A stretch of 64,000 nucleotides of DNA from an uncultured Alphaproteobacteria bacterium (GTDB lineage Bacteria; Pseudomonadota; Alphaproteobacteria; RF32; CAG-239). Shown here one piece after another: positions 395-17,170 of the stretch; position 1 is the stretch's first letter; the number at the start of each line of letters is the position of its first letter. A program made the position numbers and the translations under genes. Location: the NCBI GenBank assembly GCA_944391485.1, contig CALXTQ010000020.1:1849-65848 (forward strand). Direction: 5' to 3'. A model generated the notes under the pieces. That model saw only the letters and a program-made list of their open reading frames with translations. It ran no database searches and was not told the origin of the DNA.

Positions 395-2179
395 TCAAAG
401 GGTTGTAGTGAAAATATTTTTTTGTTGTTTCATTTTAGAAACATATAAAAAAACATCCAATAATTCTTTAATTTTATTAACTTTGAAGTCTGGATTTATT
501 AATTTTATATCCGAGAATTCAGGAAAAACAGGATGTTCAGAAAAAATATCATTTATATTTAAACTAATATATTCTGTATCTTGTACAGGCTTAATAACTG
601 AAACTAACATAATCGTATTTCTTTGATACTGATTATCTGTAATTTCTGTATAATATTTTTTTATTCCTTCTACAGACTGATCTGAAAATTTTGCATCCAA
701 TATTGCAAAATAATTTTGATTTTTATAATGGTATTTTATTAAAAAATCAGGAGTATAATAATTATATATAGAAGAACCTTTAAATTTAGATACACGAATT
801 AGATCTGTATCATTTTCTGTAATCGTAATTTTAGGTTCATGATAAAGGGTAATATTTTCATCCGCTGATATTTTCCAAAAATATTTTTTTTCTGCAAATA
901 GCTTTGAACTTTCCTCTTGGGTCGGAACTATTGAATAGATTTGATTAATTGCATCAAAAATCTGAAACAGACACACATATTCGTATAATCTTGCAATATT
1001 ATCTAACGGTAAATAGCTAAATACTTCGTCAATATTATGATAAAGAAACCACCATTGCAATAACAATGGGTACAGTTGTCTGTAATTCTTATCATACCTG
1101 AAAATAGGCGTAAGACGTGGTCTTGGTAAAACTTTACAAATGTTTTTTATATTAAATTTTGTAGACAAACAAAATCTCAAAGACATCAATTGATTTTTAA
1201 TCTTATTACACTTTTTCAAATAAAATTCATAAGTTTTTATCAGATATTGTTTGCAAACGTAAACAAACGCATTATTTTTTTCTTGTTCATTCATTTTGCA
1301 TAATGAATCTTTTATTTTTTGAAATTTTTCAGATATACTATCTATCGTTTTTATTACAGAAACAACATAAGTATATATAAGCAAATTCTCTTCTACTTCA
1401 AAGCTATTTACCAATGTATTATTTAATATGTTTTCAATTTTATATAATCTATTATGAATTTTAAGATTTGCTTCTTTGGATATTTTTAATTCAGATGAGT
1501 TTTGAGATAACCAATCGATTGAATTACGATCAAGAAAAGTTGCCTTGCTTATATCCACAACTTCTTTTTTTATAATTAAATGATTTCTTTTTATAAAATT
1601 AATACCTTGACTTTTAAAATACATTAACAACTTTTCGGCCATACATATCTGTTGGATTGACTGGTGAAAAGAAATATCACAATTTTTTATTTTAGGACTA
1701 AAAACTGTTGATATATATGTAAATGAGATATTTTTTATCTTGCTATCTAAATACAATAATAATTGTTCTATATATTCAGAACTTAACTTATTAGAAATTA
1801 TTTGCAGATAGTAATATTCTTCTTCTAGCTGTAGACCGTTATAAACAAATAACACTAAGCGAGAATAGCCACAAAAATTTTCAAAAATATGTTTATCAAT
1901 ATCAAAGATAACCTCATTCTCCAGATGCGGTTTTCCTCTCAAGGTTATATCCCCAATTTGCAAATAAATATTAGATTTATTGCTAACATTTAATACGGCT
2001 CTAAATGATATTTTATCTGTATCATATATGCACGCCTCTTCCAATGCTTGAAAATCTATTTCTCTAGGTAATTTTATTACCTTTTCCTCTTTATTGTCTT
2101 TTTTTATGAGTTCAAAAGATTTGATAAACTTAGATGTTGAAGAAATTGTAGTTTCCATAATTATATTCCCCAACCTCAA
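395..2179 (-). CDS. McrC-like PD-(D/E)xK nuclease subunit of a McrBC-type (type IV, modification-dependent) restriction system
   Basis: 594-aa ORF overlapping the upstream AAA+ gene by 50 nt, which is operon-like. The C-terminal region has a PD...(D/E)xK arrangement: YTPDFLIKYHYKNQNYFAILDAKFS. The alternative start METTISS at 2158 would shorten the overlap. Confidence 0.55.
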   Translation of the reverse strand: MRLGNIIMETTISSTSKFIKSFELIKKDNKEEKVIKLPREIDFQALEEACIYDTDKISFRAVLNVSNKSNIYLQIGDITLRGKPHLENEVIFDIDKHIFENFCGYSRLVLFVYNGLQLEEEYYYLQIISNKLSSEYIEQLLLYLDSKIKNISFTYISTVFSPKIKNCDISFHQSIQQICMAEKLLMYFKSQGINFIKRNHLIIKKEVVDISKATFLDRNSIDWLSQNSSELKISKEANLKIHNRLYKIENILNNTLVNSFEVEENLLIYTYVVSVIKTIDSISEKFQKIKDSLCKMNEQEKNNAFVYVCKQYLIKTYEFYLKKCNKIKNQLMSLRFCLSTKFNIKNICKVLPRPRLTPIFRYDKNYRQLYPLLLQWWFLYHNIDEVFSYLPLDNIARLYEYVCLFQIFDAINQIYSIVPTQEESSKLFAEKKYFWKISADENITLYHEPKITITENDTDLIRVSKFKGSSIYNYYTPDFLIKYHYKNQNYFAILDAKFSDQSVEGIKKYYTEITDNQYQRNTIMLVSVIKPVQDTEYISLNINDIFSEHPVFPEFSDIKLINPDFKVNKIKELLDVFLYVSKMKQQKNIFTTTL

Positions 2180-4634
2180 TTATATTCTGAACTATATTCT
2201 TAGAGATTGTATATGAGGACAATTCATCATACAACATCTTTAGTATACTCAAATATTTTTCTCCATCACCACATATTTCAGGAAGAATAAATTGAGCAAT
2301 TGCATAATCTAAAACATCCGAATTATCGTATTCAAAATTATCATTTTGCTCACCTATACTGGTCATAACATCAATATATTTTCGAATATTTTTTTGTTTT
2401 CGTGGCGAAATGAATCTTCCATTTCTATTTTTAGAAAGGATATCATAAATTGTTTCTAGTTTATCATTTCCGTAACTTTCTGCCGCCAAATTTTTTGCAA
2501 CTTGTCGAAAGCCAAAATTATTCTCCAATGCTGTATATGATATAGGAACAACCGTTTGTGTTTTATTATCTTCTACCTGTTTCAAGTCGTTATTAGGAAG
2601 ATAAAACACACAAGCTCTATTAATAATCCGAGGAGATAATATTTCTGTTGTATCATCCATATTGATAGTTGCAATAAATTTCATAGAATCTAAAATTTGA
2701 ATTTCCTCTAATTCTCGCTCAGATTGTAATCTTATAAATTTATTTTCATCATCTGCTATACTTAAAAAATTAGACCAATAATATTCTATAGGGCTTAAAT
2801 TAGCCTCATCTAAAAGAGACAAATATAAACATCCTTTATTCTTATCAGATTGTTGTTTTTTTAAAAATGTTCTTAACCCCGTATCTGCTTCTACAAAATG
2901 TCCTGTCAATGAATTATAATAGCCTATTAAATCTTTTGATGATGACCACCCTTTATTAACAGAAATTTTATTAAAATTAGCTCCCAAACTACTCGCTAAA
3001 TTTTGGACCAAAGAGGTCTTCCCGACGCCTGGCTTTCCATAAAATATTAAAAAGAAATTGTTAACTAATGACACCAAATAATTGATGATATCTTTTCTCT
3101 GCAACAATCTATTCTGTTTTTCAAAATACGTGTACACTTGATTCACAATTTCTTGTAAAGATAGATTTTGCCCTTTATTGGTATCATAAGTATCTTCATA
3201 TCTTTCATTAATATAATCAGCTTCTGTTAACATCTTAACTATAGGAGCCAGTTTATATATTTCTTCTCGATACTCTTTTTTTACTTTAGGTATTTCTTGA
3301 GAAATTTTATTTTTAATATCTTCTAACCGCTCTAGCTCCGAATTTTTCTCTTCTAACTCAAGCTTAATTTTCTTTAATTCTTTCTGCAATTTACCATATT
3401 CATCCTTTATATTGGTAAAAGATATTTTGATATTTAACTCTTCTACTTTTTTCTGTTTTTCAGAAAGCTCTTGTTTGGTTATGTCTAACAATTTTTGAAC
3501 TTCAGATAAGCTTTTTGAGACATCCCCAACCATCTCTTTTTTGTTTAATTCTTCTTCTAATTCCTTGATTTTTTTCTTATCATCACCGCCAAATTTCTGT
3601 TTTAACGTATTATCTGAATTTATTACATTAATAAATTCAGCTTCCGCTGTATTTAAAAGATACTTGATATTTTCTTTTTTACAAACGTAATTAAAAATCT
3701 GCTCATTTAAATCATGCTCATCTTTCTCTATAGATGACAATTTTGAAACTATTTTCGATAATCTATTTTTGTCGGCATCATTAACACGCCTTAACTGTTC
3801 AAGCAACTCTCTACGCTGATTGAATGAAATAGATTGCGAAACCTTATTTTGAACTAAATTTATTCCCCATGAAAGAAGGGCATCATCTGGAATAAAATCA
3901 ACCCAAATACCTTTTTCTTTCTCTATTAAAGAAAACACATCTCTAACATAAGAAAAACGTTCTCCATTCCATTCATTTCTCATTTTTACATCATTGAATG
4001 ATATTTCGCTTGATACGATATCTTCCTGGCATAACTCTTCTTTTATTTTATAAACAAAATAATTATTGTAATTTTTATTACTAACAAAAGGAAGGAGTCT
4101 CTCTTCCGCTGCCAAATTTACATAATAACCATAAGTTCCATTGGTATTTTTTTCTTGAGAAACAACCTTAAAAGGCCCATAAATAAAACCAGAATTTCGA
4201 ATAAAATAAAAATTATCTATTGGCTTAAAAGGAGAAAAGCATCTAACAATTGCTGTATCAATATTTAAAGCATCTAATATAAAACAATTTCTATACTTTT
4301 TTCTAACTTTATAATCTGAAATACTATTAGTATAAACACAATATTTTGAAAGGTTTGGTTTGCTTTCATCTATCAAATTTACTTCACTAAAATATGAAAC
4401 TGAAAACAGCTCCATATTTTCAAAATGATCAACAACATCTGAAAAATAAACATTTTTTTTATAATTTGGATACACTATTAACAAATCATTATTTGGAAAT
4501 GTCTTTTGAGGTACAACTCTCCAATATTCATCATCAAAAAAGACTGGATAAATAAATCCATTATTTGTTTCTTCTTCAGATTCGTTACTTGATTTAACTT
4601 TGATACAGATTAAAGGTTCACATTCATTAAACAT
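2130..4634 (-). CDS. McrB-like AAA+ (AAA_5 family) NTPase with a long N-terminal region and coiled coil
   Basis: 834 aa. Walker A is FYGKPGVGKTSLV. The Walker B/McrB-like segment LYLSLLDEANLSPIEYYWSNF resembles McrB DEINRANLS with INR missing. About 600 aa precede the ATPase, including a Lys/Glu-rich coiled coil (KELEEKNSELERLEDIKNK...). It pairs with the downstream nuclease gene. Confidence 0.65.
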   Translation of the reverse strand: MFNECEPLICIKVKSSNESEEETNNGFIYPVFFDDEYWRVVPQKTFPNNDLLIVYPNYKKNVYFSDVVDHFENMELFSVSYFSEVNLIDESKPNLSKYCVYTNSISDYKVRKKYRNCFILDALNIDTAIVRCFSPFKPIDNFYFIRNSGFIYGPFKVVSQEKNTNGTYGYYVNLAAEERLLPFVSNKNYNNYFVYKIKEELCQEDIVSSEISFNDVKMRNEWNGERFSYVRDVFSLIEKEKGIWVDFIPDDALLSWGINLVQNKVSQSISFNQRRELLEQLRRVNDADKNRLSKIVSKLSSIEKDEHDLNEQIFNYVCKKENIKYLLNTAEAEFINVINSDNTLKQKFGGDDKKKIKELEEELNKKEMVGDVSKSLSEVQKLLDITKQELSEKQKKVEELNIKISFTNIKDEYGKLQKELKKIKLELEEKNSELERLEDIKNKISQEIPKVKKEYREEIYKLAPIVKMLTEADYINERYEDTYDTNKGQNLSLQEIVNQVYTYFEKQNRLLQRKDIINYLVSLVNNFFLIFYGKPGVGKTSLVQNLASSLGANFNKISVNKGWSSSKDLIGYYNSLTGHFVEADTGLRTFLKKQQSDKNKGCLYLSLLDEANLSPIEYYWSNFLSIADDENKFIRLQSERELEEIQILDSMKFIATINMDDTTEILSPRIINRACVFYLPNNDLKQVEDNKTQTVVPISYTALENNFGFRQVAKNLAAESYGNDKLETIYDILSKNRNGRFISPRKQKNIRKYIDVMTSIGEQNDNFEYDNSDVLDYAIAQFILPEICGDGEKYLSILKMLYDELSSYTISKNIVQNIIEVGEYNYGNYNFFNI

Positions 4635-4771
4635 TATTTCACCCCTCTTATATATATAAAATTATACTATGATGTTTTTTATTGCCTATAAGATAAACAA
4701 TTTTATTCACAACAAAAAGTTGAAAACAAATTAAATAAGCTCACATTATGAAGTGAATCTATGCCAAAGGT

Positions 4772-6537: not shown

Positions 6538-6951
6538 ATGAGCAAAAGTAAAGCTACATTATCTATTACCGAACGTCTATTATTGGACTTCATTAAATAT
6601 AAAACAAACAACAATCATAAATTCTTTATGGGGAATGATAAAATCGCCATGGCCTTGGGATTAACGGTAAATTCCGCCAAAGTGATGATAAACGGACTTA
6701 TCCGTGAAGGGTATCTTATCAAATCAATGGATACCCACGGCCGCAGAATATTAGAATTATCCGACAAACCATACTTAACCATCGCTTGTGTTGATTTAAG
6801 CAACGTTGATAAACGCATTATATTGCAAGAAGCCCTGAACTTTCAACGAGACGCCGAATACTTCCAAAAACAATACGAGTTTGAAAAAGCACGAGCCGAC
6901 AGACTTCTTGCCGAACTAACACAGATAAAGCTAATGTATAAAGCTAAGTAA
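6538..6951 (+). CDS. Small winged-helix DNA-binding protein (137 aa) with a C-terminal coiled coil; candidate iteron/operator-binding protein
   Basis: RBS AAGGAG 5 nt upstream. HTH-like segment IAMALGLTVNSAKVMINGLIREGYLIKSMDTHGRRILEL. The C-terminus is a charged helix (QKQYEFEKARADRLLAELTQIK). It lies directly downstream of the repeat array. Confidence 0.55.
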   Translation: MSKSKATLSITERLLLDFIKYKTNNNHKFFMGNDKIAMALGLTVNSAKVMINGLIREGYLIKSMDTHGRRILELSDKPYLTIACVDLSNVDKRIILQEALNFQRDAEYFQKQYEFEKARADRLLAELTQIKLMYKAK

Positions 6952-6974
6952 CCTTATAAATAAAGTTTAATTGT

Positions 6975-8150
6975 TTATATTCTGTCGCTATATGGAAGCG
7001 AATTGATATAATCTTCCATAAACTGCCAATCTGGAATATAGCCCTTGTCTGAATAAGTGTGATTATCATCTATAATTGGTTCACCTGTCTCATCTCTCTG
7101 GATTGGTAGTCGGAGAATATCTGACAAATACTTTTCTTCTGTAACTTTTCTTCCATAATCATATTTAAATCTATTTGCTAAAAGTATTGTTTGTAAAAAT
7201 AGATAAATTGACTTCGTTGCTATTTCTTCTGCTAATAATAATATTTTGGCAGAATCTCCAACAACACATCCTTCTGACTGAAAAGATACAAAACCAGCAG
7301 ACCCCGTCCTTGCAACAGTTAAGCACATTTTATCTGTTAATACATAACCTTTTTTTAGACAATATATTTTATCTATCTTTCCTAAGACACCGTTGTTTTC
7401 TTCACCACTTTGAACAGCGATAAGCAAGCCTTTGTTTTCTTCTATTTCTTCTTTTGTAATACCTTTGCCATTTAACATAGTAAACAAATCAGAAACTTTA
7501 AATTCCTCCCATTGTTCAATATTCAGCTCTTTATTTGTGTTATTTTTTATTTTTGTTGTAATTGGTTTATGATGTAAAGATTTAATATAATTTTCCATAA
7601 ATTCCCAATCAGGAATATATCCTTCGTTGGAATATCCCATAGATGTATTGATTATTGGCTTCTTTTCATCATCATATTGTATTGGTAGCTTGATGATAAT
7701 ATTTTTTGATTTATTCAAATCGTGTAATTTTCTTCCATAAGACCACTTGTAGCGTTCTCTGTTTATAATGGAACAAATAAACATAGCCCTAAAAAAATTC
7801 AATTCAAATTTGGGGTTACAAATGGTTTCATCGTGACTACTGGTAAATTTAATTGGCTGATAGTAAGCATTACAAACAGAACCATTATTAGTGATTGTTA
7901 TACAATTTCCTTCAAAGATTTTACCTTCTAGTGTATTATCATCTTGCCCTGTTTTATCGCTCAATTTAATACTTTCTATATCGCAATAATCGGTAACACC
8001 ATTATTTTCTGCCGTAGCCCCCAAAAATGGTATTGGATTATCAGATGGAAATGTTTCTATGGTTTCTGGTTTATTATTAAAATAGCCATTTTTCATATCA
8101 AATAAATCGGATAATTTAAATTCTTGCCATTCTTTTATATCAAGCCTCAT
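6975..8150 (-). CDS. hsdS: Type I restriction-modification specificity subunit HsdS
   Basis: 391 aa with two similar half-repeats (IKEWQEFKLSDLFDMKNG ... IEQWEEFKVSDLFTMLNGKG), typical of two-TRD S subunits. It overlaps the hsdM stop by 11 nt. Confidence 0.7.
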   Translation of the reverse strand: MRLDIKEWQEFKLSDLFDMKNGYFNNKPETIETFPSDNPIPFLGATAENNGVTDYCDIESIKLSDKTGQDDNTLEGKIFEGNCITITNNGSVCNAYYQPIKFTSSHDETICNPKFELNFFRAMFICSIINRERYKWSYGRKLHDLNKSKNIIIKLPIQYDDEKKPIINTSMGYSNEGYIPDWEFMENYIKSLHHKPITTKIKNNTNKELNIEQWEEFKVSDLFTMLNGKGITKEEIEENKGLLIAVQSGEENNGVLGKIDKIYCLKKGYVLTDKMCLTVARTGSAGFVSFQSEGCVVGDSAKILLLAEEIATKSIYLFLQTILLANRFKYDYGRKVTEEKYLSDILRLPIQRDETGEPIIDDNHTYSDKGYIPDWQFMEDYINSLPYSDRI

Positions 8151-10080
8151 AAATTTTTCCCTCCTTAACCAAAAAAGAGAGATAATTGTTTATTGTTCTT
8201 TGGAAATCAGCTTCTGTTAATTTTGTATAATCGGTTTTCATATATGCTTCGCACAACCACTCATCATCAGCAGTTACTTTTTCTACAGCAGACTTGCCAT
8301 CAACTGCGGCTTTTCTTTCAAACAAATCAAGCCACTCTGTTTCTATTTTCTTCCATTTAGAAATAGTAAAATTACCTTTATCATCTTTAGTAAATTGCTC
8401 AACCCTGCCTAAATTTTTCTTTTTTGTAAAACCATCATCTTTGCAATAACCAAAAAAAGTACTCCTTGTTGTACCATCAGATTTTACATGCGGCTGCCCA
8501 AGTGTAAACAACATACAGCAAGCACAGACAGAAGAACCTGGATAAAATATTTCTGCCGGCAATGAAAAAACGGCATCTAATGTATTATCTTCAAGCAAAG
8601 CTCTTTTTTCTTCGGTAATAAGAGAACTAGAACCAATAGCACAAGCCAGAGGAAGCAACACTGCTAATTTTACCTGTTTAGTGGACTTTCCATTTTTTGC
8701 TAACTCACTATTCATCTCTTTTATAACATCTGATATATAATGGATAAAGACCAAACCTTTAGTAGGATCTTCTTTTCCATCCTTAGCTTTTCCCCATTCT
8801 TTTTTATAAGAATTTGGAATGCTAATGGGTTTAGCATTATATGGAGGGTTCATTAAAATAATGTCAGGTTTTGCTTTTTTGATAAAGTCTTTATGGTCAA
8901 AACAACTTCCTAATTTGATATTAGAATTTCCATCACCGTGGATCAACATATTTGTAACAGAAAGTCCAAAAGCTTTTTCTTCAACCTCAATACCATATAT
9001 ATTTTCTTTTTTAACCTTTTGCTGTAGCTTTTTAGTTTCTTCTTCTGTGTGCCCTTTTCTGCAATCAGCCAGCTCTTTAACCATTGCCTGCACCAGAAAT
9101 GAAGCACTACCACATGTCGCATCAAGTACAACCTTTGTATGATCAACCTCTGTTAACCTACACATAAATTCCGTAATATGGTCTGGAGTAAAAGCTTGAT
9201 TCTTATCTGCCTTACCTGTATATTTATTAAAAGCAATAAAGAATAAATTCAAAATATCCTGGCCTTCTGAACTATTTACATCAATATATTTATAAATATC
9301 CATAAGGATAGTATCAATAATCTCGACCCAATCTTTTTGTTTGAGAGCTCTTACTTTTTGATCTTTTAATACGCTATTTTGTAATAATTCAATTTTTTTA
9401 CTTTTATTATCTGAACCATCTAATAGATTTGTAAGTGTATTTTCAATACCAGCTATAATTTCCTTTTCTGAACTTAAATTTAAATAATTTTCGACCTGCT
9501 TTCTTAAAGCCTCATCAATTTTTGTTGCGACAAACTTTTTCAATAAGTCTTTAACATATAACAAAACTGTTCCAACAAATTGACTCCTTAAAGTTTCTGC
9601 AATATCTTTTTTATGCAACAATTCATTGAGAGCATAAGTATTTTTTAATACTTTTTCACGATCATTTTGTTTATTCAGTTGAAATAATGAAGCATAGTGA
9701 TCAAACGTATCTAAAACAGTTTCTTCTTTTAAAAGATGTTCATCATCCATAGCTGATTTCCATACTTTTATTTTATCATCATTTGTATTCGCTAAAATAC
9801 AAACAATTTTTTTAGTTTTATTAACGGCTATTTCTTCTTCAAGATACTCTCTTAATTGGTCCTCATCTTTTTTTGTAAACTTTTGTTTGGTTTCCACTAA
9901 AACCACAACTTCTTCTTTTTTAAAACGAATATCTAATTTAAAATGTTTATATGGACGGCCTAATAATTTTTCTAATTTTTCCTTTGAACCCGCAGCTACA
10001 ACATAGCTATATTCGCCATCTTCTATATTTGGCACATGACATTCACTACCAACACAGCTTATAATTGAGAACCTATCCAT
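8140..10080 (-). CDS. hsdM: Type I R-M N6-adenine DNA methyltransferase HsdM
   Basis: Motif I VLDATCGSASFLVQA and motif IV IILMNPPYNAKP (gamma-class amino-MTase). The N-terminal domain is HsdM-like. The start is placed at MDRFSII (ATG 10078-10080) with GGAGG 5 nt upstream; the track start at 10092 is an alternative. Confidence 0.85.
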   Translation of the reverse strand: MDRFSIISCVGSECHVPNIEDGEYSYVVAAGSKEKLEKLLGRPYKHFKLDIRFKKEEVVVLVETKQKFTKKDEDQLREYLEEEIAVNKTKKIVCILANTNDDKIKVWKSAMDDEHLLKEETVLDTFDHYASLFQLNKQNDREKVLKNTYALNELLHKKDIAETLRSQFVGTVLLYVKDLLKKFVATKIDEALRKQVENYLNLSSEKEIIAGIENTLTNLLDGSDNKSKKIELLQNSVLKDQKVRALKQKDWVEIIDTILMDIYKYIDVNSSEGQDILNLFFIAFNKYTGKADKNQAFTPDHITEFMCRLTEVDHTKVVLDATCGSASFLVQAMVKELADCRKGHTEEETKKLQQKVKKENIYGIEVEEKAFGLSVTNMLIHGDGNSNIKLGSCFDHKDFIKKAKPDIILMNPPYNAKPISIPNSYKKEWGKAKDGKEDPTKGLVFIHYISDVIKEMNSELAKNGKSTKQVKLAVLLPLACAIGSSSLITEEKRALLEDNTLDAVFSLPAEIFYPGSSVCACCMLFTLGQPHVKSDGTTRSTFFGYCKDDGFTKKKNLGRVEQFTKDDKGNFTISKWKKIETEWLDLFERKAAVDGKSAVEKVTADDEWLCEAYMKTDYTKLTEADFQRTINNYLSFLVKEGKIYEA

Positions 10081-10188
10081 AAAAACCTCCAAAAATATTT
10101 TCTTATTGGAAAAGTTAATATAATATTCTTTATATTATCTTAAATTGTATAAAAATATTTTGATTTAAGCCTTTTTATAATATTTTCC

Positions 10189-11619
10189 TTACTTCCCTTC
10201 CATTTCCTTGGCTAGTTCGGAAACGAGTTTCCAGTTCTGGCTTTTGTAAGCTTCTAACAAGGGGAGATAGTAGCGAGAATTTTTGCCTTCTCCTATATAT
10301 GGTATTCTTCTGACGCCGCCGGCTTTATCTTCTTTTCGCATAGCCAGCAAGGTTGTATAAGATATGCCTAAAAATGCCGCGGTTTGTTTAATATTCAACC
10401 AATTTGAACGAGCGGCAATATCAAATGCTTCTTGTTTTTTAGCACTATCAAGGTCATTTAAATAAAACTCTGATAATTCTGCGGCGTAATCACTAAACCC
10501 ACTACTCTCTAATGCCTTTACAAAGGAGCGAATAGAATTACTCATAGTTTTAACAACATTTGCAGAAAATACAATCTGCTTGAAATTAACATGTTTTGTA
10601 AATGTAATATTCTTAACTCTGAGTTCATTCAAAAATATAACATTAACAATCTGACCATAATGAAAGTTTACATCAGAAAAGGATACTTTACCCCCAAAAA
10701 TTGTATTGCTAAATATAATTTTCAATTTAGATATATTAGATAATAAAAAATTTGCCTGTTCTGAAAAAGTACAATTTCTTAAAATAAGAGCTGAATAACA
10801 CCCTTTTTGTATTTTATCAATCTCAAAATTACCATTGAATATACAGTTTTCAAACTTTAACAAACTTATTACTGTTTGAAAATTTCTATTTAATCCCGTT
10901 TTCCAATAACTAACCCGACAATTAAAAATGCAATTTTTGAACATAAATGATTTATCTCTTAAAAATAAACGTTCAGCTCCGCTGAAAGCACAATTCTCAA
11001 AAATTACTGTTCTGATATCTACATAATCAATAAATCTGAAAAGATTATCATTTTCTTCACTTGAAGAAATATTCATATTTTTCAAATGCAAGCACAAATT
11101 ATTAAATCCTAATGATTTTAATTCTATATCAGAAAAAGGAGGTTCAAAAACAGACCGAACCTCTTGCTCTGCAAAACAATACTCTTCCTCAAAGTTTTCC
11201 AAAAACTTTTTTAATTTAGCTTCATCCTTTACTATAAAATTACGATCATATCCTCTTTGGGCGTATAACTTTACTTTCTCGGACGGCAAATCAGGTTGTT
11301 TTAAATTGTAATTGAATATTGTCGCTAAAATGCACAAGAATGACTTAAGTGCATCTGCATAGTAAGGGTAATATTGGTCTAAATATTCATTTTTTACCTT
11401 TATTGGAGCTTCTTTTTTAGAAGGAAGGCTAAAAAGAAAATTTTTTACTGATTGAAAAACTTTATAATTATTTCCTGTTTCTTTTATATACTCATCATAT
11501 TGAGCCATTAAATCCTTGATGGAACTACCGGCATTTTCAATATCCGGTTCTCTTAATCTTAAAAAAACATCTGACAATCTCATCATATACAGTAGGCAAA
11601 ATTCTTTAAGCTGTTCCAT
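10189..11619 (-). CDS. Pentapeptide-repeat-like protein with a C-terminal excisionase/MerR-type HTH (HTH_17-like)
   Basis: The central region has degenerate A(D/N)(L/F)xx-type repeats (ENCAFSGAERLFLRDKSFMFKNCIFNCRVSYW...FENCIFNGNFEID...LRNCTFSEQANFLLSNISKLKIIFSNTIFGGKVSFSDVNFHYG). The C-terminus is NIKQTAAFLGISYTTLLAMRKEDKAGGVRRIPYIGEGKNSRYYL. Confidence 0.5.
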   Translation of the reverse strand: MEQLKEFCLLYMMRLSDVFLRLREPDIENAGSSIKDLMAQYDEYIKETGNNYKVFQSVKNFLFSLPSKKEAPIKVKNEYLDQYYPYYADALKSFLCILATIFNYNLKQPDLPSEKVKLYAQRGYDRNFIVKDEAKLKKFLENFEEEYCFAEQEVRSVFEPPFSDIELKSLGFNNLCLHLKNMNISSSEENDNLFRFIDYVDIRTVIFENCAFSGAERLFLRDKSFMFKNCIFNCRVSYWKTGLNRNFQTVISLLKFENCIFNGNFEIDKIQKGCYSALILRNCTFSEQANFLLSNISKLKIIFSNTIFGGKVSFSDVNFHYGQIVNVIFLNELRVKNITFTKHVNFKQIVFSANVVKTMSNSIRSFVKALESSGFSDYAAELSEFYLNDLDSAKKQEAFDIAARSNWLNIKQTAAFLGISYTTLLAMRKEDKAGGVRRIPYIGEGKNSRYYLPLLEAYKSQNWKLVSELAKEMEGK

Positions 11620-11640
11620 ACTATCACAGTATATATATTC

Positions 11641-11838
11641 TCATTGTTGTATGGGAGCTGCGAGGCTTTTGGCATATTCTCTCGTTAAAACACTATCAAG
11701 ACAACTCTTAGGAAAATCAAAACTAAAATTTTCAATATTTTGTTGGTTTAATGAAGGGATTTCTTCATCAACTTTGGCCTCACTTATGTAAGTATCTTTT
11801 TCAAATTGATAATCTTTAATATTATTCCAATTCATCAT
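11641..11838 (-). CDS. Small acidic hypothetical protein (65 aa), possibly co-transcribed with the downstream pentapeptide/HTH gene
   Basis: The ORF ends 22 nt before the start of the 476-aa gene and has a purine-rich stretch before its ATG. There are no motifs, so support is low. Confidence 0.25.
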   Translation of the reverse strand: MMNWNNIKDYQFEKDTYISEAKVDEEIPSLNQQNIENFSFDFPKSCLDSVLTREYAKSLAAPIQQ

Positions 11839-12380
11839 TTTTACCCCTAAAAACCAATTAAAACGATTATTATCATATATCTATTTAATTTTATTTAACA
11901 CTCAAAAATTGCGATTCCTTTACATCTAAAACAAAATATTTCCATTTTCTCACAAATCTTGCAAAACTTTTTACCTTAAGAAATCTATCAATATCTATTG
12001 ATATCTATTTAAAACCTACAAAGCATAAAATCATTGAAAAACAATGTGTTGACTTACATTTTGTTTTGAGCCAATACTGTTCTTGTCAGGTAGCAATACC
12101 CATGGTTAACAAAATTACGAAAGGAAAAACGATGACTGTTGTAGCATATATCATAGCTTCTTTGGTAAAAGCTTACCGTCTTAAAAAAGAAGCCAAACGC
12201 ATGGAAAACATTGTCAGAGCTGCAGGCTTTGCATACTAACTTCGGTTTATAAAACCTAAACCTTATTTAACCCCTGAAATTTAACCGTTTTAACTCAAAT
12301 GACCGACAGGAAAGCCTGTTTGTCAAACAGAATTATTATGCTCTTTTTTAACTAATATTCATTTTTGAAAGGAAATTAAA

Positions 12381-12884
12381 ATGCAAAACTTTTTGAACAA
12401 ATATAATGCCGTAAAGCTTGAAAACACTCAAGACGAAGGCAAATTAACCCTTGATAGTAGCAAAAAACGTATCTTAAAAATGCTTGATGAGAATATGAAA
12501 CACATCAAAAACAACTCTTGGAACATTAAAAACCGTATGAACAAGTTGATTGTTGATACCGAAACCAATTCAATCTTTACTTTGCGTTTAGGGGGCAAGA
12601 AAATAATCAAATATTCTCTTTATCTCTTAAATGACCGAGAAAAGCTCAATTTCTTGTCTGATTTTTACGATAGCATTGTCAATAATGAGTTTGATACCGA
12701 GATTTTGAATTTCATATCTCAAGAACTTGAAAACTCACAAAAACGCAGAAAAGCTTCTTTGGAACGTCGTAAACTCAAAAAGCAACAAGAAAAGGAAGAA
12801 GCAACCAAACGCACAATTGCAGCAGCCAGTTCTTTGATTGAAGAAACAATGTCGCAATCTCTGCCGCGTTACGCTCAGTTGTAG
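12381..12884 (+). CDS. Hypothetical protein (167 aa) with a Lys/Arg/Glu-rich C-terminal tail
   Basis: RBS AAAGGAAA before the ATG. An intrinsic terminator follows. No recognisable domain. Confidence 0.45.
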   Translation: MQNFLNKYNAVKLENTQDEGKLTLDSSKKRILKMLDENMKHIKNNSWNIKNRMNKLIVDTETNSIFTLRLGGKKIIKYSLYLLNDREKLNFLSDFYDSIVNNEFDTEILNFISQELENSQKRRKASLERRKLKKQQEKEEATKRTIAAASSLIEETMSQSLPRYAQL

Positions 12885-12907
12885 TTTCATACAACAATAT
12901 TAAAAAA

Positions 12908-12930
12908 GGAGGCTTTTGCCTCCTTTATCT
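12908..12930. terminator. Bidirectional intrinsic terminator between convergent genes
   Basis: GGAGGC-TTTT-GCCTCC hairpin (12908-12923) flanked by an A-run upstream and TTTATCTTTAT downstream. Confidence 0.65.
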
Positions 12931-12951
12931 TTATAAAATAGATACTAAAAT

Positions 12952-13458
12952 CTATAACGATTTTAGTACCCGCCAATCAATTTTCCAAATAAACCCTAGA
13001 ACAAATAATAAAGGATAGATCATTGCATATACATAATCATAAAGTGTATTATAAACACTATATTTCAATAAAATGACACAAGCTAAACCACCTACAACAA
13101 ATGGTAATACTATATTTAATTTTCTTACATTTATTATATAGGATAAGCGATACATGCTTATAATATGGTTTATTTCAATAAATTTATTATATTCATCAGT
13201 TATACTGTTTAAATCGTGCAAATATACCAGTAAATTGCGATACCAGACAATCGATAAAGTATATACTAGCATCACTATATAATATAAGTAATTGAAATTT
13301 TCTGATGGCTTAACATCATTAGAATAAAGCAATATCGCTATGCCAACTATTGAAGAACATAACGCACTATAATATTTATGAACGCTAGATATTAAACCAT
13401 ATATGTCTTTGATTTGCTCATTTAATATATTAAATTGATCTAAAATGCTTATTTTCAT
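12952..13458 (-). CDS. Small integral membrane protein (168 aa from MKISILD)
   Basis: Several hydrophobic spans (IVGIAILLYS..., YLYYIVMLVYTLSIVWY, IVLPFVVGGLACVILL, AMIYPLLFVLGFIW). AGAGGA lies upstream of ATG 13456-13458. It sits directly downstream of the Fic gene; the longer track ORF would overlap that gene. Confidence 0.45.
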   Translation of the reverse strand: MKISILDQFNILNEQIKDIYGLISSVHKYYSALCSSIVGIAILLYSNDVKPSENFNYLYYIVMLVYTLSIVWYRNLLVYLHDLNSITDEYNKFIEINHIISMYRLSYIINVRKLNIVLPFVVGGLACVILLKYSVYNTLYDYVYAMIYPLLFVLGFIWKIDWRVLKSL

Positions 13459-13514
13459 AACATTACTATCCTCTTTACAAAACATAATTTTTTCTTCAAG
13501 CAATACACGTCCGA

Positions 13515-14453
13515 CTATTCCATCATGATTTTCTGAACTTCGGCTTTTTGTTCTTGGGCGAACAAGGCATAGCCGGACGGGGTAAATGCTATTGGCCTTA
13601 ATTTTCCTTCTTTCATCCAATAACGAATGGTTGAAGTTGGAACATCGCACAACTTGGCAAATTTAGATATGGTAAGCAATGATTTATTAGGTTCTTGCTT
13701 ATGAACATCCAACAAATCAATCATCATTTTAAGCGAACGATTCAATGCCGAAAGCATAAATTTATAATAAGGCTCGCTATTCTCCCTTGTTTGATATGTT
13801 TCCAAAGCATTCAAATATCTCTTTCTATCAATAGGACGAATGATTATCGGAGCGTATCCGCTTTCAAGCAACATACTGTTAAGCAACAACCTTGCCGTAC
13901 GACCGTTACCATCAATAAATGGATGGATTGTTACCAAACGATAATGAGCTTCAATCGCTTTGAGCAGCATATCATCTTCTTTTTGCAACAACCAAGCAGA
14001 AAACTCTTTCATCAAATCAGGAACTTTAAGCGGGTTTGGAAGAATTGTTTGTGAACCGGATATTCTCACTCGGACACTCCGATAAAAACCGGCATTACCA
14101 TCATCAATGCCCGATAAAATAATTTTGTGTATCTGCAAGATATAGTTTTCATCAATTTTAACCGCCTTGGCCGCAGATGTTTGAATAAATTCAAAGGCTT
14201 TTGCATGGTTAATTGCTTCCAGATAATCATTGATAGGCTTTGCTCCGGAGGTAATTCTTTCTTCAATGGCCATCTCAGTTTCTTTTCGGGTTAAGGTATT
14301 ACCCTCAATCGCATTGGAAGTATAAGCAAGCTCTGTTTTCAGCCATTTATCAAGAACCTTTTGATTATCCTTATTTTTCAATAGCTTTTGCAAAATAGCT
14401 TTATTTTCTTCTATTTTTGATCTTATTTCCTGCATGACGGCCTCATACTTCAT
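13515..14453 (-). CDS. fic: Fic-family protein (AMPylase-type) with an N-terminal inhibitory-helix motif and a C-terminal HTH
   Basis: Canonical Fic motif HPFIDGNGRTARLL. N-terminal TSNAIEGNT matches the (S/T)xxxE(G/N) auto-inhibition motif. The C-terminus is PTSTIRYWMKEGKLRPIAFTPSGYALF (MerR/Xis-like HTH). Confidence 0.9.
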   Translation of the reverse strand: MKYEAVMQEIRSKIEENKAILQKLLKNKDNQKVLDKWLKTELAYTSNAIEGNTLTRKETEMAIEERITSGAKPINDYLEAINHAKAFEFIQTSAAKAVKIDENYILQIHKIILSGIDDGNAGFYRSVRVRISGSQTILPNPLKVPDLMKEFSAWLLQKEDDMLLKAIEAHYRLVTIHPFIDGNGRTARLLLNSMLLESGYAPIIIRPIDRKRYLNALETYQTRENSEPYYKFMLSALNRSLKMMIDLLDVHKQEPNKSLLTISKFAKLCDVPTSTIRYWMKEGKLRPIAFTPSGYALFAQEQKAEVQKIMME

Positions 14454-14470
14454 GGTTTTTATATTTATAA

Positions 14471-14499
14471 ACTATAAACCTCAAAGTCCCAAATGTCAA
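14471..14499 (-). promoter_or_regulatory. Predicted sigma70 promoter for the Fic gene at 13515-14453
   Basis: On the minus strand: TTGACA (14499-14494), 17-nt spacer, TATAGT (14476-14471). This is about 20 nt upstream of the ATG. Confidence 0.45.
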
Positions 14500-14590
14500 T
14501 CAATACTTCATAGTTGCATAAAAATAAAAGTATGAAGTTTATTGATAATGAAAAATCTATATTTCTGTTACCATTTTCCCGAGCAATACA

Positions 14591-14699
14591 AAATCCTTCT
14601 TGACTATAGAAACCGGTGGGGTATGGTGGTTATAAAATAATTAAAAGGGTGAGACAGTTGGGTGTGTTTCAGAGTTCGGCAAAAACCGCACATCCAGAA
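14591..14699. repeat. Conserved element, copy 1 (upstream of Fic gene 1). Weaker similarity continues to about 14885
   Basis: AAATCCTTCTTGACTATAGAAACCGGTGGGGTATGGTGGTTATAAAATAATTAAAAGGGTGAGACAGTTGGGTGTGTTT..AAAAACCGC is about 93% identical to 16040-16138. Confidence 0.8.
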
Positions 14700-14888
14700 G
14701 AAAAAATCATGCTTTTTCATGAGGTTGGCTTTTGTAAGACTACGGCTTCCAGCCTTAGTGTTTCAAAGTGTTCTTAAAAGCATGTTTCTGCAGCAAAATG
14801 TTCTTTTTTCTTACCGGTGCTCTTGAGCTAATTTTGCATATTTTTCTTATATTTTGTTTACTTGTCTTAAAGTGCTTCATTTATCAAT

Positions 14889-15929
14889 TTACAACACTTC
14901 CCAATAACCACCTTTAGCAGCTCCGATACGACGTATTTTGTTTTCTTTTTTCAAGGTTTCTAAATGCCATTTTATGCTATCCTCTGTCGTATTAAGGCGT
15001 TTGGCAAGTTCTTTTCTGCTGGCTTTGGGATCAATACGTAACACATCAAGAATTTTCTGGGTGGTTTTCTGGGTGGAATTTGGACTTTTCTGGGTGGTTT
15101 TCTGGGGGGAAATATCTTTAATTTGCATTTCTCTGTTATCCAACAGATTATTTTCTCCCAATAACAAATTACCAAAAAACTTATTCAAATACTCCATTGT
15201 ATATGGAATATCCTTTTCCAAATTTTGATAATTTGCTCTCACCAACGCATTTCTGAAATATTTCGAATGTTTTTCAAATAAATCATTATTTGTCTTAAAA
15301 CCAAGAGTATATAAATATTTAATTGTAAAAACTGCTGTGGCTCTGGTATTTCCTTCACCAAACGGATGTATCTGCCATATACCGGAAATAAATTTAGCTA
15401 AATGAGCAACTTTTTCAGCTTTACTTAATCCCATATAATTAAAGTTTTTCTCAGTTTGAAAATCATAATCCAACGTTTCTTTAAGACTATCTGAACGTCC
15501 GTATATAACCGTATCTCCATTCAAAATAGGTTCATCTTTGGTAATGTCATATGTTCGTAACTTTCCGGCGATTTCATCATCAAATATGCCACTAAATAAG
15601 GCTTTATGAATAGAAATATATTCCATCGGACTAAAAGAAAAAGTATGTGTGCTTAATATTTTAGCTATGCGAGCGGAAACTTCATCGGCTTCTTTCTCTC
15701 CTTGTTCTTTTAGCGTTATTGCCGGATTTATCTTATAATATTGTTTTACTTGCTCGGCAGCTTCATCAATAGATATCTTACCTTCAATATTATCTTTGGC
15801 AACTTCTATCAAATATTTTGACGGTAACAATCCGTCTACCTGTTGCAAACCAATGGCAACGCCCCAATTTTCTGCTTTTTTTTGCTTATCTGGTTCGCCT
15901 TGTTTTTTATATTCTTCAAAATCGCTCAT
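14889..15929 (-). CDS. Fic/Doc-family protein with a non-canonical motif and a C-terminal winged-helix domain
   Basis: Fic-like motif HPFGEGNTRATAV (HPFxEGN present; G->T and the second Arg absent compared with HPFx[DE]GNGRxxR). Low-complexity QKTTQKSPNSTQKTTQK repeat. C-terminal wHTH ASRKELAKRLNTTEDSIKWHLETLKKENKIRRIG. Confidence 0.8.
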   Translation of the reverse strand: MSDFEEYKKQGEPDKQKKAENWGVAIGLQQVDGLLPSKYLIEVAKDNIEGKISIDEAAEQVKQYYKINPAITLKEQGEKEADEVSARIAKILSTHTFSFSPMEYISIHKALFSGIFDDEIAGKLRTYDITKDEPILNGDTVIYGRSDSLKETLDYDFQTEKNFNYMGLSKAEKVAHLAKFISGIWQIHPFGEGNTRATAVFTIKYLYTLGFKTNNDLFEKHSKYFRNALVRANYQNLEKDIPYTMEYLNKFFGNLLLGENNLLDNREMQIKDISPQKTTQKSPNSTQKTTQKILDVLRIDPKASRKELAKRLNTTEDSIKWHLETLKKENKIRRIGAAKGGYWEVL

Positions 15930-15986
15930 TTTTAACCCAAACTTTACATTGATTCTTGGCTATTATTATGTCTTCTAATTTCTAAA

Positions 15987-16015
15987 ATTATAGTAAAGAT
16001 TATATTTTATCTCAA
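15987..16015 (-). promoter_or_regulatory. Predicted sigma70 promoter for the Fic gene at 14889-15929
   Basis: On the minus strand: TTGAGA (16015-16010), 17-nt spacer, TATAAT (15992-15987). This is about 55 nt upstream of the ATG at 15929. Confidence 0.45.
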
Positions 16016-16039
16016 TCTGTAATTTATCACATCCTAAAA

Positions 16040-16138
16040 AAATCCTTCTTGACTATAGAAACCGGTGGGGTATGGTAGTTATAAATCAATTAAAAGGGTG
16101 AGACAGTTAGGTGTGTTTTAAAGTTCGGAAAAACCGCC
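16040..16138. repeat. Conserved element, copy 2 (upstream of Fic gene 2). Weaker similarity continues to about 16380
   Basis: About 93% identical to 14591-14699, in the same orientation. Confidence 0.8.
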
Positions 16139-16580
16139 CTTTAGCCTGAAAAAATGGCGTTTTTTCATTGACTTGGATTTTTGGGTTTTATGCCTTCCAG
16201 CCACCCCAGCCACAGTTCAAAAATCGTCAGAAATGGCGATTTTTTCTTTATAAATCAACAACTTAACCGAGTCCGAAAATTTATATCATTACAGGCTTAA
16301 ATATGAATCATCTTCGGACTACTTTTTATGACTTTCATTAAAAATCAATAACTTAACTAAAGGCATTCTTTCATAGCCTTTTGGGATTATCATTTATCCA
16401 AAGCCGGATTTGAAGCCTGCCTACAATAAAAGTTTTTGACGTTACCGACGATTTATTTTGGCTCCGGCGGCTAGCCCCAGAGGTTACAGCATACGGCTCT
16501 GGTCTGCTGGTTGTCGCACCTGTACTCTCCGGTCGGGATATGCCTATCCTCTGCCACACATCGGCTAAGCTTAAAAATGA

Positions 16581-17069
16581 TTAGTCAAAATTGAAGGAAC
16601 CCTTTACGTGCAAGCTTAAAATAGATGTATGCGTTTTTAGTAGATATTTTAACTTCTTTTCCAACTTACCGAGAAGTTGTAAACCTAATCTATATGCAAA
16701 TCTTGTGGTTTGCATTTGGTCATTGTAAAATTCTTTACTAGATGTTGCTAAAAAGCTATCTACACCATCTTTATTAATTCTTGCATCTTCTGCATAGCAC
16801 TTACATTGAATTGCCCAATACTCATTATCTGTTGTTAAAGCAACCAAATCTATACCTGTGTCTTTACCACTAAAATCTTTTCTATATGGAAAATCCTCCC
16901 AAAGCCAAATTTCTTTGAATTTTCCTGTATATTTAGGAGTAATCATCAAATATGATTTCATTAATCTTTCAAATCTTGTGCCTTTATCTCTTTCTGAAAA
17001 AGACTCATTTCTAAATTTATTTAAAACGTCAGTAAAAGATAAAATTGGTGCAGACATCAGAATCTCCAT
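16581..17069 (-). pseudogene. Truncated Mrr-type (PD-(D/E)xK, Mrr_cat-like) restriction endonuclease domain gene (162 aa; C-terminal partner domain missing)
   Basis: Motifs FERLMKSYL...GKDTGIDLVAL...YWAIQCKCY (D...QxK Mrr_cat signature). This domain is normally the N-terminus of a much larger helicase/restriction protein. Here the ORF stops and is followed by an odd GC-rich non-coding segment. Confidence 0.5.
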
Positions 17070-17170
17070 AGATGGTTGATTAACTTAATCAAACACTTAA
17101 AAGAGTTCAAAAAGATGGTGCTGATGATAGAGAAGATGTAAATATCGTGCATATAATTAAATACTATATT

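Follow-up and report, generated by a model that had tools for sequence, protein, structure and literature searches.

When genes for a DNA methyltransferase (M) and a specificity subunit (S) stand together and no restriction (R) gene accompanies them, it may be asked whether the pair is an orphan methylation module, a type I restriction-modification (R-M) system that has lost its R gene, or an R-M system that is complete as it stands. The question is raised by a locus at positions 6975-11838 of a 64,000-nucleotide (nt) stretch of DNA (the window; contig CALXTQ010000020.1 of assembly GCA_944391485.1) from an uncultured Alphaproteobacteria bacterium of the RF32 lineage. Four open reading frames (ORFs) make up the locus, at 6975-8150 (391 amino acids, aa), 8140-10092 (650 aa), 10189-11619 (476 aa) and 11641-11838 (65 aa). 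An earlier note on this DNA had listed all four, and all are present where it placed them; the 476-aa protein, which it described as downstream of the M gene, is in fact upstream, since all four ORFs lie on the minus strand. Transcription thus runs from the 65-aa ORF through the 476-aa ORF and the 650-aa M protein (hereafter A) to the 391-aa S protein (S, or B). The reading proposed here, to which a probability of roughly 0.8 is assigned, is that 6933-10188 on the minus strand is a complete, self-contained type IIB R-M cassette of the BcgI kind.

The A and S subunits

The methyltransferase of the locus had been reported to retain intact hsdM motifs, and this proved correct: A matches N6_Mtase, with motif I (D324-x-T-C-G328) and NPPY (415-418) both intact and without variation in the family. 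The hsdM label, by contrast, holds only in part. The protein is a methyltransferase, but the Pfam N6_Mtase match covers only residues 289-547 of the 650, and the label leaves unaccounted for some 290 N-terminal residues outside the methyltransferase domain, which carry a conserved PD-(D/E)xK-type motif. No HsdM_N domain was found in A by Pfam. The best PADLOC match is to the type IIG fusion model REase_MTase_IIG PDLC03608 (3e-44), with further matches to PDLC03602 and PDLC03619. The C-terminal tail alone (aa 532-650) matches the REase_MTase_IIG models at E<0.01 (PDLC03619, 7e-20; PDLC03608, 3e-15; PDLC03602, 9e-4), and shows one further, weak match to PDC-M10A (E 0.033).

In AlphaFold2 (AF2) models the N-terminal domain of A is an alpha/beta domain with a predicted local distance difference test score (pLDDT) of about 80. 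Within aa 1-125 the model places helices at 29-44 and 74-90 and strands at 55-59, 62-69, 95-102 and 107-113; aa 130-292 are entirely helical and lead into the methylase. D54 stands right before the first long strand and E67-x-K69 at the end of the next. Conservation of the motif was assessed in an alignment of 38 divergent relatives, taken, with one genome locus, from the 2421 hits (E<1e-3) that an exhaustive search through 1.84 billion representatives returned. E67 is kept in 38/38 and K69 in 37/38 of these sequences, in which identity across the domain falls to 12-20%. The upstream acid is either D54 or a D/E two columns earlier, the latter giving the classical P-[DE]-F...E-C-K form. Searched against the PDB, a profile of the N-terminal domain retrieved as its sole chain the type IIG enzyme BpuSI, weakly (E 2.9) and aligned exactly on the D...EVK motif, and hhalign of the A N-terminus against the HSDR_N_2 nuclease domain of a related locus gave a P of 8.5e-4 with the D and the ExK in register. 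Foldseek aligned 518-523 columns of A with BsaXI and DrdV, as against 285-374 with the top-ranked HsdM chains. The N-terminal domain, whose modelled topology fits a PD-(D/E)xK nuclease, is a candidate nuclease domain, its fold being supported short of formal proof. The methylase core points elsewhere by sequence: its nearest PDB entries are the type I HsdM proteins 3ufb (6e-9) and 2okc (5e-7), and a profile of the whole A family, run against PDB sequences, reached type I M subunits only and not BsaXI.

The S protein is of the two-target-recognition-domain (TRD) type that had been claimed for it. Pfam recognizes two Methylase_S stretches, and the two halves are 34% identical (E 4e-29); the overlap of the M and S genes, also claimed, amounts to 11 nt. 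Its best PADLOC match, Specificity_II ("type II specificity subunit") PDLC03591 (2e-21), outranks every type I S model. The PADLOC profiles matched by the two proteins are 637 and 341 residues long, probably the same lengths as BcgIA and BcgIB. Across A+S loci the S proteins are 30-58% identical to that of the window and mosaic, whereas the A proteins are 66-81% identical. TRD2 of the window is 58-68% identical to TRDs that occupy position 1 at ten Clostridia loci, and relative to the closest cassette (locus L001, with an A 99% identical) only TRD2 differs. No additional hsdS gene, TRD cassette or shufflon was found in the window.

A two-gene cassette and its alternatives

The absence from the window of any R subunit with helicase and nuclease functions, remarked on before, was upheld by Pfam, tblastn and phmmer searches, none of which returned an R-type helicase. 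Pfam detected no R-type protein among 30 ORFs scanned (large ORFs up to 46 kb), of which those longer than 750 aa are an AAA+ protein, an MscS channel and a decarboxylase only, and tblastn and phmmer with four R-type queries gave no match over the whole window. The same holds for related loci. Full-length homologues of A, of about 650 aa, number in the thousands; automated annotation gives them no more precise name than "N-6 DNA methylase" or "SAM-dependent methyltransferase". When one genome per species was scanned, 54 A loci were recovered, and the S gene directly follows A at 53 of them. No ResIII or HsdR gene occurs systematically within 10 kb across these loci: ResIII was present in 2 of 43 ORFs of at least 700 aa, and one of the two (member 1) is PriA. 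The hosts of A+S include Alphaproteobacteria (among them Candidatus Enterousia), Gastranaerophilales/Melainabacteria, Elusimicrobia, Clostridia/Lachnospiraceae and Kiritimatiellae, with isolates of Blautia and [Lactobacillus] rogosae. The contexts of the pair are unrelated to each other, for example Kiwa with a serine recombinase or DUF3800 with a resolvase, and at L001 the window cassette itself recurs in an unrelated context (10164-7507 at 96%; 7106-6966 at 87%). Gene pairing and the mobility of the pair are thus read directly from the loci, as domain content and motif conservation are from the proteins. A MADS system was considered and rejected: matches to mad2, mad5 and mad8 are weak and far below the cut-off (30.8 vs 720 bits), and the cassette moves as two genes only. 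Some relatives of A, 770-845 aa in length (P0244, P0279), carry one Methylase_S TRD fused at the C-terminus.

BcgI-like enzymes consist of an RM subunit and a smaller S subunit and modify both strands without a companion methylase (PMC3874165). The window cassette has the gene content of a type IIB system, namely a fused methyltransferase that follows a helical connector, an adjacent two-TRD S gene and no ATP-dependent R gene. Since it is a two-gene unit that moves between phyla without an R gene and matches the review description of BcgI-like enzymes, it is read here as a complete type IIB system. In the proposed mechanism, A would carry an N-terminal PD-(D/E)xK nuclease (D54, E67, K69), a helical connector, a gamma-class N6-adenine methyltransferase and a short tail, and B would be an HsdS-like subunit with two target-recognition domains. 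The stoichiometry, bipartite site, cleavage geometry and activity suggested for A and B follow the analogy with BcgI and BsaXI: two A subunits would assemble on one B (A2B), B would read a bipartite site, and each A would methylate the adenine of one half-site. On unmodified DNA the nuclease domains of A would cut at fixed distances on either side of the site without ATP-driven translocation, and HsdR would for that reason not be needed.

Several observations weigh against this interpretation. The AF2 model of the whole A chain is mediocre (pLDDT 65; predicted template modeling score, pTM, 0.42), and direct support for the nuclease fold is modest (BpuSI at E 2.9; an hhalign probability of 24%). 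The N-terminal 140 or 290 residues of A, searched alone, gave no meaningful match in Pfam or PADLOC. The likeness to BcgI derives from published descriptions of that enzyme, and the expression and activity of the cassette are predictions. That no sequence model sees a nuclease in the N-terminal domain, and that type I M subunits are, by sequence, the nearest solved structures to A, would also suit a solitary M+S methyltransferase, in which the domain would be a relic or a non-catalytic DNA-binding module and methylation would serve epigenetic regulation or protection from other restriction enzymes. A relic, however, would not keep E67, K69 and the upstream acid across relatives whose domains are only 12-20% identical, and the pair acts as a mobile defence cassette in defence contexts (e.g., beside Kiwa and recombinases) and occupies a slot that is otherwise filled by R-M systems. 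The orphan reading, one of those offered in the earlier note, is therefore unlikely; the R function most likely resides inside the 650-aa protein, as in BcgI or BsaXI.

A classical type I system with its hsdR unlinked elsewhere in the genome or deleted from the island is more improbable still. It would account for the HsdS-like subunit with two TRDs and for the M-S overlap, and in sister genomes the slot is indeed filled by type I hsdMSR genes. Alignment of the sister loci to the window runs at 98.5-98.7% to 10189, the stop of the 549-codon gene described below, and resumes at 90-94% from 6932 downward; the cargo between these points differs. In the window the cargo is the 3.26-kb A+S cassette; in sister contig L010 it comprises a 346-aa protein, a 1322-aa ResIII/Eco57I protein and an AAA_15/21 ATPase. 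The commonest cargo, found also on a 2.03-Mb contig, is a type I set with hsdM (569 aa, with HsdM_N), small genes, hsdS, sometimes a PIN_12 protein, and hsdR (1003 aa). Window A is only 25% identical to this sister HsdM over the methylase core, and homology to the sisters ends at both borders of the slot, so that one system has replaced another here, contrary to the proposal that an R gene was lost from the island by deletion. Moreover, A has no HsdM_N whereas the sister HsdM of the same slot has it, no linked hsdR is present at the 54 loci across phyla or in the window, and a type I assignment leaves the 290-aa N-terminal extension unexplained. The A+S cassette is without HsdR and HsdM_N, both of which define type I systems, and is most likely neither an orphan methylase nor a decayed type I system. 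What appeared as an anomaly, M and S without R, can very probably be explained as a complete BcgI-class restriction enzyme. The family is abundant in several gut phyla, with shuffled TRDs; type IIB systems may be under-counted in gut microbiomes, and the family could supply new specificities.

The interrupted 549-codon gene and the cargo slot

Upstream of the cassette, the 65-aa acidic ORF does precede the 476-aa ORF as reported, but the two are pieces of one 549-codon gene split by a TGA. They share a frame with that single TGA (11643-11641) between them (65 + 1 + 7 + 476 = 549 codons), and homologues of the 476-aa protein are 548-551 aa long; the 90% cluster of the protein has 95 members, most of those listed being of 549 aa. 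A 99% identical homologue whose length matches 549 codons (P0121) has Gly at the TGA position, and sister contigs L010 and L011 (98.4% nucleotide identity) have GGA in its place at codon 66. Recoding of TGA (code 4 or 25) was examined and rejected, TGA being the ordinary stop of 5 of 24 ORFs in the window, the A gene included. Because TGA is an ordinary stop in the window and the sisters carry GGA, the TGA at codon 66 is a nonsense mutation or a read error and not a recoded codon, and the most that the window could yield is a 476-aa product shortened at its N-terminus. The window and L010/L011 differ at 17 codons of the gene; 12 of these fall in the last 32 codons (516-547; window 10189-10290), with all but one synonymous. 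Over its C-terminal 80 residues the protein fully matches a 373-aa homologue (P0135) to which it is otherwise about 37% identical. This clustering at the 3' end and the identity with P0135 suggest a recombination tract in the conserved 3' end, which may have arrived with the cargo.

The AF2 model of the intact 549-aa protein is good (pLDDT 84; pTM 0.74) and consists of a helical domain (1-220), a beta-solenoid (238-424), further helices and a C-terminal helix-turn-helix (HTH, 480-548). The Xis/MerR-type HTH claimed for the C-terminus was found by Foldseek to be of excisionase type: about 66 residues of winged helix align with RdfS (8dgl_A) at a TM score of 0.63, 30-32% identity and a probability of 1.00. 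A PHROG match to 'HTH DNA binding protein' was obtained at 1.8e-4, while a sequence search of the HTH against the PDB gave no match. Pentapeptide-like repeats had been claimed as well, and a short region of this type is present inside the predicted solenoid. Most of the solenoid repeats are coils of 20-29 residues that carry an FxNCxF motif; at the end come about nine true five-residue repeats, which produce a marginal Pentapeptide_3 match over only some 45 residues. Of the two profile matches expected of the 476-aa protein, that to Pentapeptide_3 exceeds its threshold (29.5 vs 27 bits), but that to HTH_17 does not (17.2 vs 27). Foldseek matches of the solenoid to beta-helices are non-significant only (AlbG, E 0.58), and pectate-lyase types score alike.

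The protein had been proposed, in its 476-aa form, to act as an accessory of the A+S system, as a DNA-mimic anti-restriction factor or a controller. Its gene is on the same strand, 96 nt upstream of A with no terminator-like site between, R-M cargo very often follows immediately downstream of its family members, and the Pentapeptide_3 match is above threshold. Promoter and terminator scans performed at chance level in the AT-rich DNA of the locus. DNA mimics are acidic; the beta-solenoid segment, with 17 acidic and 21 basic residues, is basic (pI, isoelectric point, 8.7) and so does not fit one. The gene is cut by a stop codon in the window, homology between islands ends exactly at its own stop codon whatever the cargo, and part of the family adjoins non-R-M genes. 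Finally, no homologue of the 549-aa protein occurs within 10 kb at any of the 54 other A+S loci (0/54). An accessory role in the A+S system is very doubtful, although the suspected connection with restriction survives in another form, that is, the frequent position of the family directly upstream of varied R-M cargo. On the safest reading, the 549-codon gene is a backbone gene of an integrative island that borders a hot spot for defence cargo and is not part of the A+S system.

That mobile elements have defence hot spots is well established, but a literature search turned up neither this cargo slot nor the protein family flanking it. A metagenome scan added 79 loci of the 549-family to five found earlier, and the 59 of these loci with at least 1.5 kb downstream were assessed for cargo. 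The first co-directional ORF usually begins 74-135 nt past the stop of the 549-gene, and similarity between loci stops right at that stop codon ("GGGAAG-TAA"). Pfam applied to 73 cluster representatives of the downstream ORFs gave N6_Mtase in 15, Eco57I in 15, ResIII in 10, Methylase_S in 8, HsdM_N in 6, HSDR_N_2 in 5 and MmeI domains in 4. A home-made iterative hidden Markov model of S subunits was contaminated by helicases, and only methylase and helicase labels were used for cargo. By our own count, about twenty distinct-looking R-M or defence modules exchange in the slot; a subset of the family stands next to non-R-M genes. Across the 84 loci, a 167-aa gene lies divergently upstream in most, and homologues of a 137-aa HTH_36 gene lie on the opposite strand 2.6-7.7 kb downstream of the HTH gene in many, with an ankyrin protein next; in L010 a tyrosine integrase is encoded further along. 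The slot is thus precisely bounded, from the stop codon of the conserved HTH gene to the convergent 137-aa gene, and offers a convenient natural system in which to study defence-cargo exchange, as well as singling out the uncharacterised protein family that always lies at its border. A 10-nt direct duplication, TAGCTTTAT(A/C), is present at window 6925-6960 (minus-strand reading), exactly at the right border of the cargo and at the 3' end of the 137-aa gene. Beyond this right-junction duplication no repeats were found at the cassette ends, and no clear recombination site; nor is there a tRNA gene in the window that might serve as an integration site.

A regulatory role of the 549-aa family is possible. 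As a tentative suggestion, and one more probably wrong than right, the beta-solenoid/excisionase-HTH family (in its 549-aa and 373-aa forms) might be a cargo-agnostic gatekeeper of the R-M slot in gut integrative islands. Encoded on the island some 100 nt ahead of whichever R-M or defence module is plugged in, and in the same orientation, the DNA-binding protein would control expression or establishment of the module, or cargo exchange itself. In function it would then be the counterpart of C proteins or BrxR-type regulators, to which its architecture is unrelated, and the nonsense mutation of the window would be a natural loss-of-control variant.

Other cargos of the slot have features of their own. 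In the type I system of sister genomes L149-L153 (locus coordinates ~10750-19400) three to five small genes (129-313 aa), sometimes with a 373-aa PIN_12 protein, lie within hsdM/hsdS/hsdR, an unusually interrupted operon. A recurrent cargo (L104, L106, L107, L111, L112, L124, L125) begins directly after the HTH gene with a 719-753-aa fusion of HSDR_N_2 and N6_Mtase/Eco57I, followed by proteins of about 440 and 587 aa; in annotation this further nuclease-methylase fusion system would pass for a type I methylase. Among loci with HTH-protein homologues of 33-37% identity (L129-L142) the order is rearranged, the 167-aa partner being downstream on the same strand and the 137-aa/ankyrin pair upstream, and next among the large genes comes a recurrent one for a 557-573-aa protein with no methylase or helicase signature.

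Elsewhere in the window, a second variable segment spans 430-4750, since in L010 window position 429 joins 4751. Its two minus-strand genes (2130-4634 and 395-2179) encode an 834-aa coiled-coil/AAA+ (AAA_5-like) protein that matches the PADLOC candidate system PDC-M26A (1e-30) and an overlapping 594-aa protein with no family match; the segment is probably another defence cargo. The conserved island backbone beside the cargo slot includes two Fic/DOC proteins fused to MerR-type HTH and HTH_24 (13515-14453 and 14889-15929, minus strand). A stand-alone 162-aa protein with the Mrr_cat_2 restriction-endonuclease fold (16581-17069, minus strand; E 8e-28) is encoded just outside the sister-shared segment, homology to L152 stopping at 16212. 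At 17171-20704 (minus strand) a 618-aa fusion of tRNA-synt_2 (class II aminoacyl-tRNA synthetase-like) and thymidylate kinase is followed by Peptidase_S51 and AAA_28 proteins, an odd combination. Composition changes stepwise at about 33000, from a GC content of 27-42% over 1-33 kb to 43-54% over 33-64 kb, and the low-GC part contains, besides the island, a class I lysyl-tRNA synthetase (20992-22635) and several ankyrin-repeat proteins. An origin in E. coli was considered and rejected, as megablast gave no match for the island or for the high-GC part. Features of the locus are collected in the table.

Table. Positions in the window of the cassette, its predicted domains and the adjoining genes
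Feature	Position	Strand	Basis
A (RM) subunit gene, 650 codons, TTG start (ATG at codon 5)	8140..10092	-	ORF, N6_Mtase, PADLOC, AF2
Candidate PD-(D/E)xK nuclease domain, aa 1-125	9718..10092	-	AF2, motif conservation, weak profile matches
D54	9931-9933	-	
E67	9892-9894	-	
K69	9886-9888	-	
All-helical connector, aa ~130-292	9217..9705	-	AF2
N6-adenine methyltransferase core, aa ~293-550	8443..9216	-	motif I 9109-9123, NPPY 8839-8850
C-terminal tail of A, aa 551-650	8143..8442	-	common to type IIG/IIB fusion models
B (S) specificity subunit gene, 391 codons	6975..8150	-	TRD1 half 7563-8150, TRD2 half 6978-7562
Exchangeable cargo segment (96-nt leader, A, S)	6933..10188	-	sister-locus alignment breaks
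Interrupted 549-codon gene	10189..11838	-	TGA at 11641-11643 (codon 66)
Beta-solenoid of 549-codon gene	10567-11127	-	
Pentapeptide-type repeats of 549-codon gene	10579-10713	-	
HTH of 549-codon gene	10195-10401	-	
Conserved 137-aa HTH_36 protein, convergent, far border of cargo slot	6538..6951	+	Pfam, synteny
Conserved 167-aa protein, divergent from 549-codon gene, backbone partner	12381..12884	+	synteny

Comparison with known systems

The 549-aa protein resembles several known proteins in part. With the pentapeptide mimics Qnr, MfpA and AlbG it shares the nine or so five-residue repeats in a predicted beta-solenoid, but most of its coils are of 20-29 residues, the solenoid is basic, and it is embedded in a larger DNA-binding protein. 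In the Qnr/MfpA mimics, tandem pentapeptides build a quadrilateral beta-helix that takes up most of the protein. The winged-helix fold at the C-terminus is shared with RdfS and HTH_17, although here it forms the C-terminal domain of a multidomain protein and falls below the Pfam HTH_17 threshold. The controller (C) proteins of R-M systems are of about 80-100 aa, have an Xre-type HTH and are specific to their operon, whereas the 549-aa protein has an HTH of another class and is found upstream of many unrelated cargos. The protein lacks the acidic surface of Qnr/MfpA and probably their architecture as well, and it is not of the C-protein type; only its HTH is classifiable, as excisionase-like.

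For the cassette, type I HsdM/HsdS (EcoKI, EcoR124I, StySJI M) provide the closest methyltransferase core by sequence, as well as tandem TRDs in S and overlapping M and S genes. They differ in that window A has a nuclease-like N-terminal domain in place of HsdM_N and that neither the window nor related loci supply an HsdR partner. HaeIV has a single-chain architecture of R, M and one TRD (PMC3874165), to which the 770-845-aa relatives of A with one C-terminally fused TRD correspond; the window system keeps both TRDs on a separate polypeptide. The type IIB enzyme BsaXI, solved by cryo-electron microscopy (8w0p/8w2q), has the domain order R-H-M, as does BcgI as modelled, and its catalytic residues are E73, D90, E105 and K107 (PMC11997821). 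A shares this order and has its candidate catalytic residues in the same part of the protein. The RM subunit of BsaXI is, however, of about 915 aa and includes a 'knob' and a 'paddle' for which the 650-aa A has no room, and BsaXI shows no sequence-level match to A. In BcgI itself the nuclease-dead mutant is E53A, in the PD...EXK motif (PMC3592470), and Glu53 lies in the same part of the protein as D54, E67 and K69 of window A. The N-terminal domain of window A differs in being too diverged for any library model. In common with BcgI, the window system has two adjacent genes, an A subunit that joins a predicted N-terminal PD...ExK nuclease to a gamma-class N6-adenine methyltransferase with no ATP motor, no separate R gene and no extra methylase.

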